A DNA stretch of 64,000 bases. Origin: an uncultured Candidatus Saccharibacteria bacterium. Its GTDB lineage: Bacteria; Patescibacteriota; Minisyncoccia; Phycocordibacterales; DATDWN01. The DNA lies in NCBI GenBank assembly GCA_964616425.1, contig CAZTQY010000001.1:23008-87007 (forward strand), read 5' to 3'. The position numbers were made by a program, and so were the translations under genes. This document shows, in pieces, positions 374 to 59,065 of this stretch. The number at the start of each line of letters is the position of its first letter. The first letter of the stretch is position 1. A model generated the notes under the pieces. The model worked only from the letters and a program-made list of their open reading frames with translations, ran no database searches and had not been told where the DNA came from.

Positions 374-1156
374 ATGCCAAACATGGCAAAACCTAAAAAA
401 GTCGCACCAAAAGCTCCGGATACTTACCCTATGCGTATCAACAAATACCTGGCACACAAAGGCCTGGCTACTCGCACAGGAGTAGATGAACTAATAAAAA
501 GTAATAAAATCCTGATAAACGGAGTTATCGCTAAACTTGGTGACAAAGTAAAAGAAACAGACAAAGTAGAAGTTAGAGGAGTTCATAATAAGAAATATAT
601 TTATCTTGCATACAACAAAGGTATGGGTATTGTTAGCACGAATCCTCAAGGTGACGAGAAAAGTATTATGGACAATGTAAAAGTATCTGCCCTGCCCGCA
701 GATGCTACGCGACCAGCGTTGCAGGCGGGAAAAGTTTTCCCTATTGGTAGACTAGATAAAGAGTCTCATGGACTAATTATCTTAACTGATGATGGACGTG
801 TTACTGATAGACTACTTTCTCCAGACAAAAATCACGAGAAAGAATACTTAGTCAAACTTGATCGCAAATACACACCAGGTTTTGTCAGAAACATGCAAGA
901 AGGTGTGAACCTTACAGATGGCATGACAAAACCAGCCAAAGTTGAAGAGGTTGATGATATACGCTTCAAACTCACATTAACTGAAGGCCGAAATAGACAA
1001 ATACGAAGGATGGCAGAAAAACTAGGTTTTACAGTTAGAGATCTCCAAAGAATCCGGATTCAAAATATTGAACTCGACAAACTACCATTGAACTCTTATA
1101 GAGAAATAAAAGGAGATGAAAAGGCTGAATTTCTTAAAAGTATAGGTCTGGAATAA
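374..1156 (+). CDS. Pseudouridine synthase, RsuA/RluB family (S4 domain plus PSU catalytic domain)
   Basis: N-terminal S4-like MRINKYLAHKGLATRTGVDELIK. Catalytic motif PIGRLDKESHGLIILTDDG. The gene carries an in-frame 13-aa GC-rich insert (LPADATRPALQAGK) at nt 692-729. Confidence 0.8.
   Translation: MPNMAKPKKVAPKAPDTYPMRINKYLAHKGLATRTGVDELIKSNKILINGVIAKLGDKVKETDKVEVRGVHNKKYIYLAYNKGMGIVSTNPQGDEKSIMDNVKVSALPADATRPALQAGKVFPIGRLDKESHGLIILTDDGRVTDRLLSPDKNHEKEYLVKLDRKYTPGFVRNMQEGVNLTDGMTKPAKVEEVDDIRFKLTLTEGRNRQIRRMAEKLGFTVRDLQRIRIQNIELDKLPLNSYREIKGDEKAEFLKSIGLE
692..729 (+). repeat. 38-bp GC-rich imperfect-palindromic element inserted in-frame (copy 1)
   Basis: Sequence is ctgcccgcagatgctacgc-gacca-gcgttgcaggcggg. 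It is identical to the 2202-2239 copy on the opposite strand except for the 5-nt centre. It encodes LPADATRPALQAG. Confidence 0.7.
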
Positions 1157-1195
1157 GTTCTTGCAGTAATACCATTACCAAAGTAAAATAAAAGC

Positions 1196-1984
1196 ATGTC
1201 AGAAGATCAAATCACAGTAGTTTCTCAAAATGAACCAGTTATAGAAATACCGATAGACGTCGAAAAGGAAGTTATAAATGTTCCCCCAAAAGAATCCCCA
1301 GTAGAAATACTTACGAGACAGGAACTCCATGATACCGCAGTAGAAAGAGTACATTTAATATCAAAAGAGTTTACTGATGCATTTAACTTTTTAAGAAAAT
1401 ATCCTAAATCTGTAACATTTTTTGGAGGTAGCCATTTTAAAGAATCAGACAAGGAATATCACAAAGCACATGAACTTGGTGCAAAAATCGCCAACGAACT
1501 AAGTTACTCAGTTGTTACAGGTGGAGGTCCTGGGATAATGGAAGCAGCAAACAGAGGAGCATTTGAAAGTGAAGGTCAATCTATTGGATTAACAATCGAA
1601 CTATCCAAGCATCAAATAAAAAATGCTTATTTAACCGACAACTTAGATTTTTACTATTTCTTTAGTAGAAAAGTTTGCTTGTCATTTTCAGCGGAGGCAT
1701 ATGTATTTTTCCCAGGTGGTTTCGGAACTTTTGATGAATTCTTTGAAATTGTAACATTGGTACAAACTAAAAAAATAGAGAGAGTTCCAATAATATGTGT
1801 GGGGTCAGATTTTTGGAGTCCATTTCATGAACTAATGAAAAAAGAAATGTTGTCTCGCGGAACTATCGGCGAAGACGACTTGGAACTATATAAAATATTA
1901 GATGATACAGATGAGATAATTAAAGCTATTAAAAACTCTCCAGTCAAAAATGGAATAAAGTTTAACCACAACGCTCACCAATAA
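1196..1984 (+). CDS. LOG-family protein (cytokinin riboside 5'-monophosphate phosphoribohydrolase-like, TIGR00730 family)
   Basis: Motifs VVTGGGPGIMEAANRGA and PGGFGTFDEFFE are diagnostic of the LOG/YvdD Rossmann-fold family. Confidence 0.8.
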   Translation: MSEDQITVVSQNEPVIEIPIDVEKEVINVPPKESPVEILTRQELHDTAVERVHLISKEFTDAFNFLRKYPKSVTFFGGSHFKESDKEYHKAHELGAKIANELSYSVVTGGGPGIMEAANRGAFESEGQSIGLTIELSKHQIKNAYLTDNLDFYYFFSRKVCLSFSAEAYVFFPGGFGTFDEFFEIVTLVQTKKIERVPIICVGSDFWSPFHELMKKEMLSRGTIGEDDLELYKILDDTDEIIKAIKNSPVKNGIKFNHNAHQ

Positions 1985-1987
1985 AAT

Positions 1988-2015
1988 AACCCGCCAAATG
2001 GCGGGTTATTTTATT
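1988..2015. terminator. Bidirectional rho-independent terminator between the convergent LOG and xseB genes
   Basis: Hairpin aacccgcc-aaat-ggcgggtt, with a T-run on the plus strand and an A/T-rich tail on the minus strand. Confidence 0.7.
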
Positions 2016-2265
2016 TCTGTATCTCTTTCTTTATCTCCTTGAATTCGTTTTCGATTTCAGAAAGTCGTTCTCGAGATGTTTTTATCAACTCTGCGCCCTC
2101 TTTTACATACTCTAGACCCTTTTCAACGTCTAGTTCTGACTGAGACTCAAACCATGAAACAATTTCAGCAAGTTTCTTTAGAGAATCTTTTAAATTTGCC
2201 CCCGCCTGCAACGCTTTATGCGTAGCATCTGCGGGCAGGTCACCTATAGTTTTTTTTGTTACCAT
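2011..2265 (-). CDS. xseB: Exodeoxyribonuclease VII small subunit
   Basis: Core LKDSLKKLAEIVSWFESQSELDVEKGLEYVKEGAELIKTSRERL is the typical XseB helical hairpin. It lies immediately upstream of xseA. The N-terminus carries the in-frame GC-rich insert LPADATHKALQAG. Confidence 0.8.
   Translation of the reverse strand: MVTKKTIGDLPADATHKALQAGANLKDSLKKLAEIVSWFESQSELDVEKGLEYVKEGAELIKTSRERLSEIENEFKEIKKEIQK
2202..2239 (-). repeat. 38-bp GC-rich imperfect-palindromic element inserted in-frame (copy 2, reverse orientation)
   Basis: Reverse complement is ctgcccgcagatgctacgc-ataaa-gcgttgcaggcggg. It is read in the same relative orientation as copy 1 and encodes LPADATHKALQAG within xseB. Confidence 0.7.
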
Positions 2266-4365: not shown

Positions 4366-5634
4366 TTACTCGATGAATGTAAGTGCTTTGCCTTTCTTTC
4401 CAGCTCGTCCTGTTCGGCCTATTCGGTGCACATAGTCCTCATATGTAGCTGGAATATCGAAGTTAATAACATGAGATACTCCAGAGATATCCAAACCTCT
4501 AGCAGCAACATCTGTCGCAACTAATACCTGAGCTTTATCATCTTTGAAAGTTTTAAGTGCTCTCTGTCGCGCTGACTGATTTTTATCACCATGAATAGAC
4601 TCAGCCTTGAAACCACGCGCATTTAACATTGTTGTTAGTTTTTCAACTCCATGCTTTGTTCTTCCGAAAATCAGAACTTTGCTGAACTCTGGCTGTACAA
4701 GCATTGTATGTAAAATATCAAGCTTATTGTCGCCTCTGTTTACTCTCACAACATCCTGATCAACATTTTTTGATGTATCTTGTGTTTTTACAGATATCAT
4801 TACTGGATTTTTCAAGAAATCTTTTATAAGTGCAGAAATCTCTGGAGAAAGAGTCGCAGAGAAAAACAGAGTATGTCTATCTTTTGGCATCATAGCCATC
4901 ATGAACTTCATATCGTTTATGAAACCCATGTCTAGCATTCTGTCAGCTTCATCCAAAACAACTGTTTTGAAATATGAGAGATTTAAAACTTTTCTTTCGA
5001 TAAGATCCTTTAGTCTTCCTGGCGTACCTATAACAAACTCGTTTCTATATCTTAGTTGTCGTATTTGTGAACCTATTGGTGCACCTCCAACACAAACAAC
5101 AGAGTACAATTGCAAGCCTTTTATAAAATCCTTTAGTTCATCCTCTATCTGTATTGCAAGTTCACGTGTAGGACACATGATGAGTATGTTTTCTGTTGGA
5201 TTTGAAAGCACTTTGTGAATAAGTGGTATAAGAAAAGCTGCAGTTTTACCTGTACCAGTGTTTGCAATACCAACAACATCCTCACCTTTTAGTATATGCG
5301 GAATAGCCCGATCTTGGATCGGAGATGGGTCAACATAACCTTTTGTTATGATGTTATTTTTTAATCTTTCATCTATAAGAAAATCTGAGAACTTGTGCTC
5401 AGGCACAAATTGCTCAACAGTTTCAGTTATAACTGCTTTGTTAACAAACTTTGATGGATGGATACTTTGTGAAGCACCTCGGCCTCTACCACCTCCACCT
5501 CTGTTTCCTCCACGTACTGGGAACCTTGAACGTCCTCCAGAAGTAGAACCGTAAGCGCTACGAGTAGGTCTTCCTGAAAAGGAAGGTTTCTTAAATGTCC
5601 GCGAAAGGACACCTTTTTGTATTTTTGATTGCAT
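4366..5634 (-). CDS. DEAD-box ATP-dependent RNA helicase with an N-terminal RGG-rich region
   Basis: Q-motif/Walker A NTGTGKTAAF, DEAD box VLDEADRMLDMGF, SAT, and HRIGRTGRAG motif VI. N-terminal GGRSRFPVRGGNRGGGGRGRG low-complexity segment. Confidence 0.9.
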   Translation of the reverse strand: MQSKIQKGVLSRTFKKPSFSGRPTRSAYGSTSGGRSRFPVRGGNRGGGGRGRGASQSIHPSKFVNKAVITETVEQFVPEHKFSDFLIDERLKNNIITKGYVDPSPIQDRAIPHILKGEDVVGIANTGTGKTAAFLIPLIHKVLSNPTENILIMCPTRELAIQIEDELKDFIKGLQLYSVVCVGGAPIGSQIRQLRYRNEFVIGTPGRLKDLIERKVLNLSYFKTVVLDEADRMLDMGFINDMKFMMAMMPKDRHTLFFSATLSPEISALIKDFLKNPVMISVKTQDTSKNVDQDVVRVNRGDNKLDILHTMLVQPEFSKVLIFGRTKHGVEKLTTMLNARGFKAESIHGDKNQSARQRALKTFKDDKAQVLVATDVAARGLDISGVSHVINFDIPATYEDYVHRIGRTGRAGKKGKALTFIE

Positions 5635-8077: not shown

Positions 8078-8201
8078 TGTTTGAACGTAGTGAGTTTGCG
8101 AGAAGTCTCTGGAGTGAGGACGATTGTTTTCTTGATTTGCGAGCAGAGCAAAAACTCAGCAGAGTTTTATGCGAGCTGTAAAAATAGTTAATTCGTAAAA
8201 T

Positions 8202-58862: not shown

Positions 58863-59065
58863 AGGTTTTTCAATTTTTGTTTTTTAGAGCACGCATAATC
58901 GCAGGCTTGCGATTTGCTCTCACTCAACGATCAAGAAAACTATTTTCCTCATTCCAGAGCCCTCTCGCAAACTCGGGCTCTGCCCTCAAACAGCACTCCA
59001 GGCTTCTTCTCATTCGTTGTCGTTATCTAATCACTTCCGCAGTCTCCAAAACCAAGAAAAAGTTC

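Follow-up and report, generated by a model that had tools for sequence, protein, structure and literature searches.

Repetitive extragenic palindromes (REPs) are dispersed, GC-rich imperfect palindromes of 20-40 nt, the sub-families of which differ by complementary changes in the stem. They carry a conserved GTAG or CGTC tetranucleotide at one end, some lie in-frame inside the genes of known proteins, including pseudouridine synthases, and some families have no dedicated transposase (PMC3733652, Di Nocera et al. 2013). Rickettsia palindromic elements (RPEs) are palindromic repeats found in-frame in functional housekeeping genes (PMC3733652). The GC clusters of yeast mitochondria are short GC-rich palindromes in an AT-rich genome, mostly intergenic with some in-frame (var1); their loops evolve fastest, the elements merge or nest to give new ones, and they are linked to AT-rich repeats (PMC8811140). 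The subject here is a 39-nt repeat, CCTGCCCGCAGATGCTACGC-N5-GCGTTGCAGGCGGG, that is present twice in a 64,000-nt stretch of DNA (hereafter the window; contig CAZTQY010000001.1, positions 23,008 to 87,007) from an uncultured Candidatus Saccharibacteria bacterium, once in a gene for an RluF-like rRNA pseudouridine synthase and once in xseB, which encodes the small subunit of exodeoxyribonuclease VII. It probably represents a miniature, non-autonomous family of GC-rich hairpin DNA repeats of the REP or RPE kind that is tolerated in-frame within genes.

Two further classes of mobile element invite comparison. MITEs, or miniature inverted-repeat transposable elements, measure 70-300 nt and have terminal inverted repeats and target duplications, while elements of the IS200/IS605 type carry hairpins, produce no target duplication and use a fixed 4-5-nt target. 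The in-frame insertion of palindromic elements into the housekeeping genes of Rickettsia is said to have been described by Ogata et al. in 2000.

A 39-nt repeat in two housekeeping genes

The element enters DNA as a discrete unit, with an exact boundary and without a target-site duplication. Copies lie in unrelated genes and in intergenic DNA, and they can be exactly absent from the nearest relatives. A preliminary description of the window had reported a GC-rich near-palindromic element of 38 bp, in-frame in two unrelated genes, at 692-729 and 2202-2239. The 38-nt pattern CTGCCCGCAGATGCTACGC-N5-GCGTTGCAGGCGGG has two exact matches in the window, at 692-729 (+) and 2201-2238 (-), and none in 100 dinucleotide-preserving shuffles of it, which bears out the presence of the element; the first pair of coordinates was right and the second was one base off. 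The length did not hold, as filled and empty orthologous sites set the unit at 39 nt, with one extra C. The two copies span 691-729 on the plus strand (CCTGCCCGCAGATGCTACGCGACCAGCGTTGCAGGCGGG) and 2201-2239 on the minus strand (CCTGCCCGCAGATGCTACGCATAAAGCGTTGCAGGCGGG). They are identical at 35 of 39 positions, and all four differences fall, as described, within the 5-nt centre, which is GACCA in copy 1 and ATAAA in copy 2. Their GC contents are 72% and 64%, respectively, against 37.2% for the window. No degenerate extra copies were found in the 64 kb, where the family has two members.

Copy 1 lies in a gene (374-1156, +) whose product has an S4 domain and a PseudoU_synth_2 domain with all catalytic-core residues conserved. 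It had been assigned to RsuA, which is the same family, but the protein is nearer to RluF, and its best solved relative is RluF of E. coli (PDB 3dh3, E = 1.5e-46). The alignment with 3dh3 was used in place of an AlphaFold model, which was built on a 17-sequence alignment and was unusable, with a mean predicted local distance difference test (pLDDT) score of 52. Copy 2 lies near the N-terminus of XseB (2011-2265, -), which has 84 residues where homologues usually have 67-73. The names of the homologues of both host proteins point to Parcubacteria / Patescibacteria. Both copies have the same orientation and the same frame relative to their host open reading frames (ORFs), a frame that reads LPADATxxALQAG, and each adds 13 amino acids to a housekeeping protein: LPADATRPALQAG in the first (...SA-LPADATRPALQAG-KVFPIGRLD) and LPADATHKALQAG in the second (MVTKKTIGD-LPADATHKALQAG-ANLKD).

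Filled, empty and short-form sites

The evidence for mobility comes from relatives and from other lineages (loci designated by L numbers) rather than from the window, and both movement and an enzyme are inferred. The closest relatives that are without the repeat lack exactly the 39 nt, at 89-94% nucleotide identity, and at neither locus is there a target-site duplication. L150, which is ~92% identical over 3 kb, and L152 both have rluF and xseB genes without exactly CCTGCC...GCGGG (39 nt), and their empty sites show no duplicated target bases. At the protein level, two RluF orthologues (P0003 and P0004) are 97% identical over aligned residues and have precisely 13 residues fewer at the insert. 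The alignment with E. coli RluF shows a 13-residue gap between ...VNHS and KRVFPIGRLD, and the XseB homologues listed, of 66-90 residues, are all without the segment. As the closest orthologues of both proteins lack precisely the 13 residues, the segments are insert-specific, in keeping with the earlier proposal.

An identical 39-mer is present in rluF of L274 and of L275/L276 (93%), and rluF of L004 (79% identical) holds a copy with two substitutions. The xseB site is empty in L275/L276 and in L004; the L274 contig ends before xseB. The rluF copies of the window, L274, L275 and L004 have the centre GACCA in common, where the family consensus has ATCAA, and those of the window and L004 are identical at 37 of 39 positions even though the gene is only 79% identical (P = 0.0065). 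The xseB copy matches the family consensus at 38 of 39 positions and the rluF copy, 1.5 kb away, at 35. The 39-nt xseB insertion was seen in no other sequence, and the protein database yielded no other XseB of 84 residues. The xseB copy is a recent gain, unique to the window genome among the sequences compared, since it is absent from xseB of L150, L152, L004 and L275/L276. The rluF copy, on the other hand, is old, since it is shared, with the same unusual centre, by relatives that are 21% diverged. Its absence from L150 reflects one of three events: the copy was lost exactly, recombination brought in an empty allele, or the element entered the same nucleotide more than once.

At the position of copy 1 in rluF, relatives that are more distant have an 18-nt near-palindrome, CCTGCCTGCGCAGGCGGG (L002/L003), or a 21-nt degenerate version (L273). 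In xseB of L001 there is a perfect 18-nt palindrome, CCTGCCTGCGCAGGCAGG, within about a codon of the position of copy 2. The 39-mer corresponds to the 18-nt core with 21 nt placed at its dyad centre. A further 18-nt version is found in L002 as a 6-codon insertion (MPAHAG) in the gene for an HI0933-like flavoprotein, and the short form is therefore itself a dispersed in-frame insert. Two divergent TsaD genes, in L146 and L206, likewise share an occupied site across lineages: in both, the 39-mer lies in the loop that separates HxxGHL from ALLVSGGHT, and the flanks differ.

Distribution of the family

A scan of one genome per species with the partial pattern CAGATGCTACGC N3-9 CGTTGCAGG gave 25 loci, with the consensus CCTGCCCGCAGATGCTACGCATCAAGCGTTGCAGGCGGG. 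Full arms, which the pattern did not require, are present in 23 of the 25 (L142 is cut by a contig end). In copy 1 the arms correspond to CCTGCCCGCAG at 691-701 and TTGCAGGCGGG at 719-729 (both +), which are near-invariant in those 23 matches although their outer bases had been left free. The loci come from metagenome-assembled genomes (MAGs) labelled Gottesman-, Levy-, Roizman-, Woese-, Uhr- and Berkelbacteria, Saccharibacteria and 'Patescibacteria'. The element is also borne by six low-GC contigs from MAGs with the label Gammaproteobacteria or Pseudomonadales; these labels could not be confirmed and are doubtful, because one of the six, L132, has a right flank like that of L138, a Patescibacteria contig.

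A metagenome scan in which only the arms were fixed found at least 122 copies, 68 of them unique; the uniformity of the arms is partly due to the patterns used for finding the copies. Among the matches listed, the commonest length is 39 nt (61 copies), followed by 40 nt (30), 43 nt (12) and 37 and 38 nt (six each), with a few others of 41-45 nt. The 43-nt class is found on contigs of 50-62% GC, one of which carries a protein named Verrucomicrobiota by NCBI. A further 17 family members of various lengths occur in 718 kb of flanking low-GC DNA, or ~2.4 per 100 kb. By an estimate from sampled loci, many lineages of the Patescibacteria, or Candidate Phyla Radiation (CPR), have roughly tens of copies in each genome, and the family seems to extend to at least one other phylum. 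The search for further copies, in other genomes and in unrelated genes, was in this sense amply rewarded, although the window itself has only two.

No matches to the long pattern were found in IMG/VR, and all that GenBank phages and PLSDB plasmids showed were partial matches attributable to chance, with no phage or plasmid carrier. A viral scan with the arms alone returned, among the matches listed, mostly contigs of ~50% GC or above that are apparently unrelated or due to chance. Four IMG/VR contigs of ~50% GC (L075, L095, L124 and L058) contain multi-copy hairpins of 33 or 36 nt that share their outer arms with the family (CCTGCCCGCAATGCTTCGCAACGCGAGGCAGGCGGG; CCTGCCCGCCAGTGCCAGGCGATGGCAGGCGGG) and lie within larger inverted repeats (CTCTCACAGAG...CTCTGTGAGAG); relation to the family and convergence are both possible. 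A search of a database of 5.8 billion proteins with the consensus peptide in tandem produced 775 word candidates, none with E <= 10, the query being too short. No description of the family was found in the literature by sequence, peptide or topic, in a search of incomplete coverage, and the family is apparently undescribed.

Coding context

The consensus is open in three forward frames and one reverse frame. Of the copies in the genome set, at least 11 fall inside long ORFs and are read in the LPADATHQALQAG frame, two are read in the CPQMLRIKRCRR frame, near N-termini, and about five are intergenic. Among the metagenome matches listed, 39-mers in long ORFs are distributed 26:7:4:4 across the four open frames (chi-square p = 3e-7), a strong bias of the sort expected of an element that inserts in-frame, as the preliminary description had suggested. 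Gene-internal 39-nt versions are mostly read in one frame, as a small hydrophilic peptide (LPADATHQALQAG), and are found at loops, linkers or termini. Long ORFs contain 41 of the 61 39-mers, nine of the 30 40-mers and none of the six 38-mers among the same matches. Versions of 39 nt, a multiple of three, persist inside genes, and those of 38 or 40 nt are essentially confined to intergenic DNA. These length and frame statistics therefore argue that the insert is translated and filtered by selection, which fits the data, whereas removal from the mRNA does not.

The hosts are housekeeping genes and unrelated to one another. Those identified with Pfam encode a polyprenyl synthase, the gamma subunit of ATP synthase, RsmH, a PrmC-like methyltransferase, TsaD, PGK, GatB, EF-Ts, an integrase of the XerC/D type and TrmD; SecA, DnaG, DNA ligase, MurD, FolC, DusB and RseP were assigned by eye. 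In one Berkelbacteria locus (L143, ~4580-4870) the element lies inside an insertion of ~190 nt after codon 14 of lepA, and the first ~14 codons of the gene are duplicated downstream of this insertion.

Hairpin structure and covariation

The family has a common architecture, in which the conserved arms CCTGCCCGCAG...TTGCAGGCGGG surround a variable inner part (702-718 in copy 1, +) with compensatory substitutions. The arms are able to pair with one another, and the predicted DNA hairpins have energies of -10.5 to -13 kcal/mol. Within the inner part, two helices are apparent from covariation. Helix B pairs positions 11/12-15 with 19-22/23, for example as ATGC/GCAT, ACGC/GCGT, AGGC/GCCT, GTGC/GCAC or TGTC/GACA, and for 12-15/19-22 there are 14 double-change cells, a number reached by none of 500 shuffles. 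Helix A pairs positions 17-20 with 26-29 (ACGC/GCGT, AAAGC/GCTTT, ACAGC/GCTGT, ACGAC/GTCGT, ATCCGTC/GACGGAT); it has at least 4 bp in 47 of the 68 unique elements, against 4.9% of shuffled ones, and is formed by 15 different strand sequences. As the two helices share positions 19-20, they are mutually exclusive. In copy 1 (+), helix A would pair 707-710 with 716-719, while helix B, at 701-705 with 709-713, is degraded. The centre of the repeat is not a simple loop.

Relative to the flanking genes, nine intergenic copies have the same orientation and 12 the opposite one. This lack of bias indicates a constraint on folded DNA, or an orientation-independent role, and on this ground a strand-specific RNA role was rejected. 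At the element, Rfam gave no family match even at E values up to 10; in the whole window just two features, a c-di-GMP-II riboswitch and a tRNA, attain the gathering score.

Flanking sequences and neighbouring genes

In a flank logo built from 140 unique copies, the sole signal is T/A at -2/-1 and C/G at +1/+2, at ~45-50% each, so that TA|CG is weakly preferred. Of the copies, 15% lie between direct repeats of 7 nt or more (1.6% expected) and 9% between inverted repeats by which the hairpin is extended (1.5% expected). About 10-15% of 39-mers lie inside 7-nt tandem repeat tracts that are in phase across the element; AT-rich tracts of this kind (GTCAAAA, ACGAWTT, CAATTTY, AATTTCT) surround it in L134 (6935-6974), L240, L180, L146 and L128. 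Identical flanking 'wings' accompany the element into different host genes, such as those for RseP and DNA ligase. By eye, no complementarity was seen between the variable centre and the target flanks.

Some copies abut other family members or a 20-nt palindrome. In different host genes of L222, L225, L166 and L193, the element is enclosed by a small hairpin of a second kind, tccgccaaaggcgga ... cgcctctggcgga, with the peptide SAKGG...ASGG, so that palindromes are nested within palindromes.

No recurrent neighbour gene was found: all-against-all clustering of 2,341 ORFs from ~145 loci gave housekeeping families only, each at eight loci or fewer. The 40-nt class is enriched near tRNA genes, with 12 of 30 copies within 300 nt. 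In L268, L254 and L234 (40 nt) and L219 (39 nt), members lie 10-30 nt upstream of, or overlap, the predicted start of small GIY-YIG nuclease ORFs. These members sit in tRNA-like D-arm sequence (GGTGTAGCTCAA|TGGTAAA), and a tRNA gene (Asn; Val in L254) is found ~270-290 nt away, beyond the GIY-YIG ORF. The possibility that the 40-nt class interrupts tRNA genes was rejected, as excision in silico restored no tRNA. A Gottesmanbacteria contig (L147, 2305-3040) has an ORF for a Y1 transposase resembling the REP-associated tyrosine transposases (RAYTs), flanked and interrupted in-frame by its own repeat, ACGAGGTC(C/G)GACCTCGTAG. This repeat is of the GTAG type, and CPR genomes therefore also hold classical REPtron-like units.

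Mode of spread and alternative explanations

If the repeat is indeed a mobile hairpin of the REP or RPE kind, copies would be made in trans by an enzyme that is not encoded beside the element. This enzyme would act on the folded single-stranded hairpin, in a manner resembling the 'peel and paste' transposition of the HUH/Y1 type, and such a substrate would account for substitutions that preserve the fold, for orientation being unbiased and for the absence of duplications. Homologous recombination between related strains would then spread or remove single insertions. Inside genes, only copies of 3n length and in a benign frame would survive, and the inner sequence of the hairpin would drift by compensatory changes. 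The preliminary suggestion of a small mobile palindromic element that inserts in-frame, like an RPE but shorter, is supported by the orthologues, the further copies and the frame bias.

Several observations weigh against this account. No transposase or other mobilising enzyme was identified among the ~145 loci, although genes elsewhere in the genomes are possible, and a RAYT was rejected as the mobiliser, since the sole RAYT-like gene in the ~1 Mb of sampled loci, that of L147, is flanked by the different, GTAG-type repeat. A conserved target such as IS200/IS605 elements need is not seen, the TA|CG preference being weak. The copy number is low for a REP family, and if transposases are lineage-specific it is hard to see why lineages that have diverged so much should have near-identical arms. 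Furthermore, a given nucleotide position, one in rluF and one in xseB, is either empty or filled by the 39-mer or by an 18- or 21-nt version, depending on the lineage, and a simple random-insertion model does not predict long, short and empty forms at the same sites. A bolder and more tentative proposal is that the family is a minimal, arms-only hairpin transposon of most Patescibacteria and of other phyla, cut and pasted exactly, with no duplication of the target, by a conserved enzyme of the host or of a mobile element that reads a two-state (switching) single-stranded hairpin, with the 18-nt palindrome as an excision footprint or landing pad. If true, it would be smaller than any other known transposable unit of bacteria and would offer a natural system in which to study how 'orphan' REP-like repeats move.

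Other explanations dispense with a transposon. The copies could be captured fragments of a conserved, structured 'master' RNA or single-stranded DNA, pasted into breaks by repair or reverse transcription, in which case the covariation would record the evolution of the master. Covariation in both of two overlapping helices is unusual for a simple repeat, the arms are conserved across phyla, and neither target duplication, target motif nor linked gene has come to light. This origin is nonetheless unlikely, given the empty Rfam search and the absence of a recurrent genomic context fit for a master locus; moreover, identical wings in different genes imply that more than the hairpin was copied. Spread and loss might alternatively involve no transposition but DNA uptake followed by homologous recombination, perhaps biased at uptake or repair in a way that resembles the drive proposed for DNA uptake sequences. 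This agrees with the patchy presence of the rluF copy, which L275 and the more distant L004 possess but L150, the closest relative, does not, with identities that are mosaic gene by gene, and with the highly conserved DNA that flanks the rluF site. Recombination cannot, however, create insertions in new, unrelated genes (xseB, TsaD, SecA), known uptake sequences are far denser than the ~2-3 copies per 100 kb of this family, and the xseB copy is nearer to the consensus than to its rluF neighbour. Recombination as the sole process is accordingly quite unlikely.

It is very unlikely that the repeat is a functional cis-acting RNA or DNA signal recruited many times over, whether a hairpin for the stabilisation or processing of transcripts, a site of pausing or one of protein binding. 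Preservation of the structure by compensatory changes, the many intergenic copies, and the position of the 40-nt class near tRNA genes and just upstream of small GIY-YIG genes are all in its favour. Yet the copies show no bias of orientation with respect to their flanking genes, the hairpin is not followed by a T-run, close relatives do without the element, and insertions midway through conserved enzymes have no obvious signalling role. That the 13-residue peptide is itself a selected functional module is scarcely credible. The same peptide does recur in many proteins in one frame, but the DNA is conserved at every synonymous position, in an AT-rich genome, and there are copies in other frames, on the opposite strand and in intergenic DNA; nor do the host proteins share a function.

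Comparison with known repeat systems

At 39 nt, the repeat is a short GC-rich imperfect palindrome predicted to form a stem-loop, within the 20-40 nt of REPs, which it also resembles in its complementary stem changes, its dispersal and its in-frame intragenic copies. It differs from them in its ends, CCTG... and ...CGGG, which lack the GTAG or CGTC tag. REPs are species-specific, mainly extragenic and present in many copies, whereas the present family is low-copy, has a large share of its 39-nt class inside genes and has arms conserved across lineages of class or phylum level. Nor was a RAYT gene flanked by the same repeat found in the ~145 loci, the RAYT-like ORF of L147 having a different cognate repeat.

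The likeness to RPEs lies in a palindromic insert, in-frame in the housekeeping genes of a small AT-rich genome, that adds a peptide segment at non-core positions and leaves the genes intact. RPE-1 is, however, ~100-150 nt long, as against 39 nt with an 18-nt core version, and the host phylum is unrelated; this comparison is one of descriptions. With the mitochondrial GC clusters the family has in common in-frame as well as intergenic copies, a fast-evolving inner part, nesting and AT-rich repeats. The clusters are organellar, though, and their terminal AG/TAG repeats are read as target duplications, of which none is seen in the present family. The 'byp' elements differ in that they are skipped by the ribosome, while the length and frame statistics suggest that the present insert is translated.

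Like MITEs, the family is non-autonomous, presumably mobilised in trans, and has inverted arms; the unit is only 39 nt, however, and neither window locus has a target duplication. A hairpin and the lack of duplication are common to the family and to IS200/IS605 elements, but a fixed target was not seen for the former and its enzyme was not found. DNA uptake sequences occur about once per kb and arise by substitution, whereas the present copies occur at ~2-3 per 100 kb and are insertions. Several features of the family call for an explanation: its two alternative helices that covary, the occurrence of short and long forms at identical sites, the wings of heptamer repeats and the conservation throughout the CPR.

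CPR genomes are very small and streamlined, yet they hold a selfish-looking 39-nt hairpin inside secA, atpG, tsf, tsaD, gatB and pgk, kept almost letter for letter over long-diverged lineages. The filled, empty and short-form alleles of one site in public metagenomes provide material for the study of how transposase-less palindromic repeats spread and vanish, and the same question of mobility arises for CGTC-type REPs, RPEs and mitochondrial GC clusters. In practice, the inserts inflate protein lengths, split domain matches and can mislead orthology and annotation in CPR genomes.

Other features of the window

A GC-rich island in this 37% GC genome, at 32950-35700, contains an ORF of 431 aa (33192-34487, -) that scores above the cut-off of the NCBIfam model 'TIGR-Tas system RNA-guided endonuclease' (NF052498, E = 1.2e-41) and weakly matches the IS110 family Transposase_20. 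Around it are at least seven units of ~45-50 nt with conserved ends and centre (GTGAGAC...AGTTCTTTCGAACA...GTCTCAC, and GGAC...GTCC), each with two variable segments of ~10 nt. The units are most likely a TIGR array, and the region is probably a horizontally acquired TIGR-Tas locus in a Parcubacteria genome.

The cyclic di-GMP-II riboswitch, at 31155-31238 (-), scores 61.5 bits, over the Rfam gathering score, and lies downstream of very large repeat-rich ORFs (~12-31 kb). A 45-nt inverted repeat pair, unrelated to the 39-mer, is found at 8092-8136 and 58930-58974, 50.8 kb apart. Its two copies are 87% complementary, and both are intergenic, adjoining minus-strand genes.

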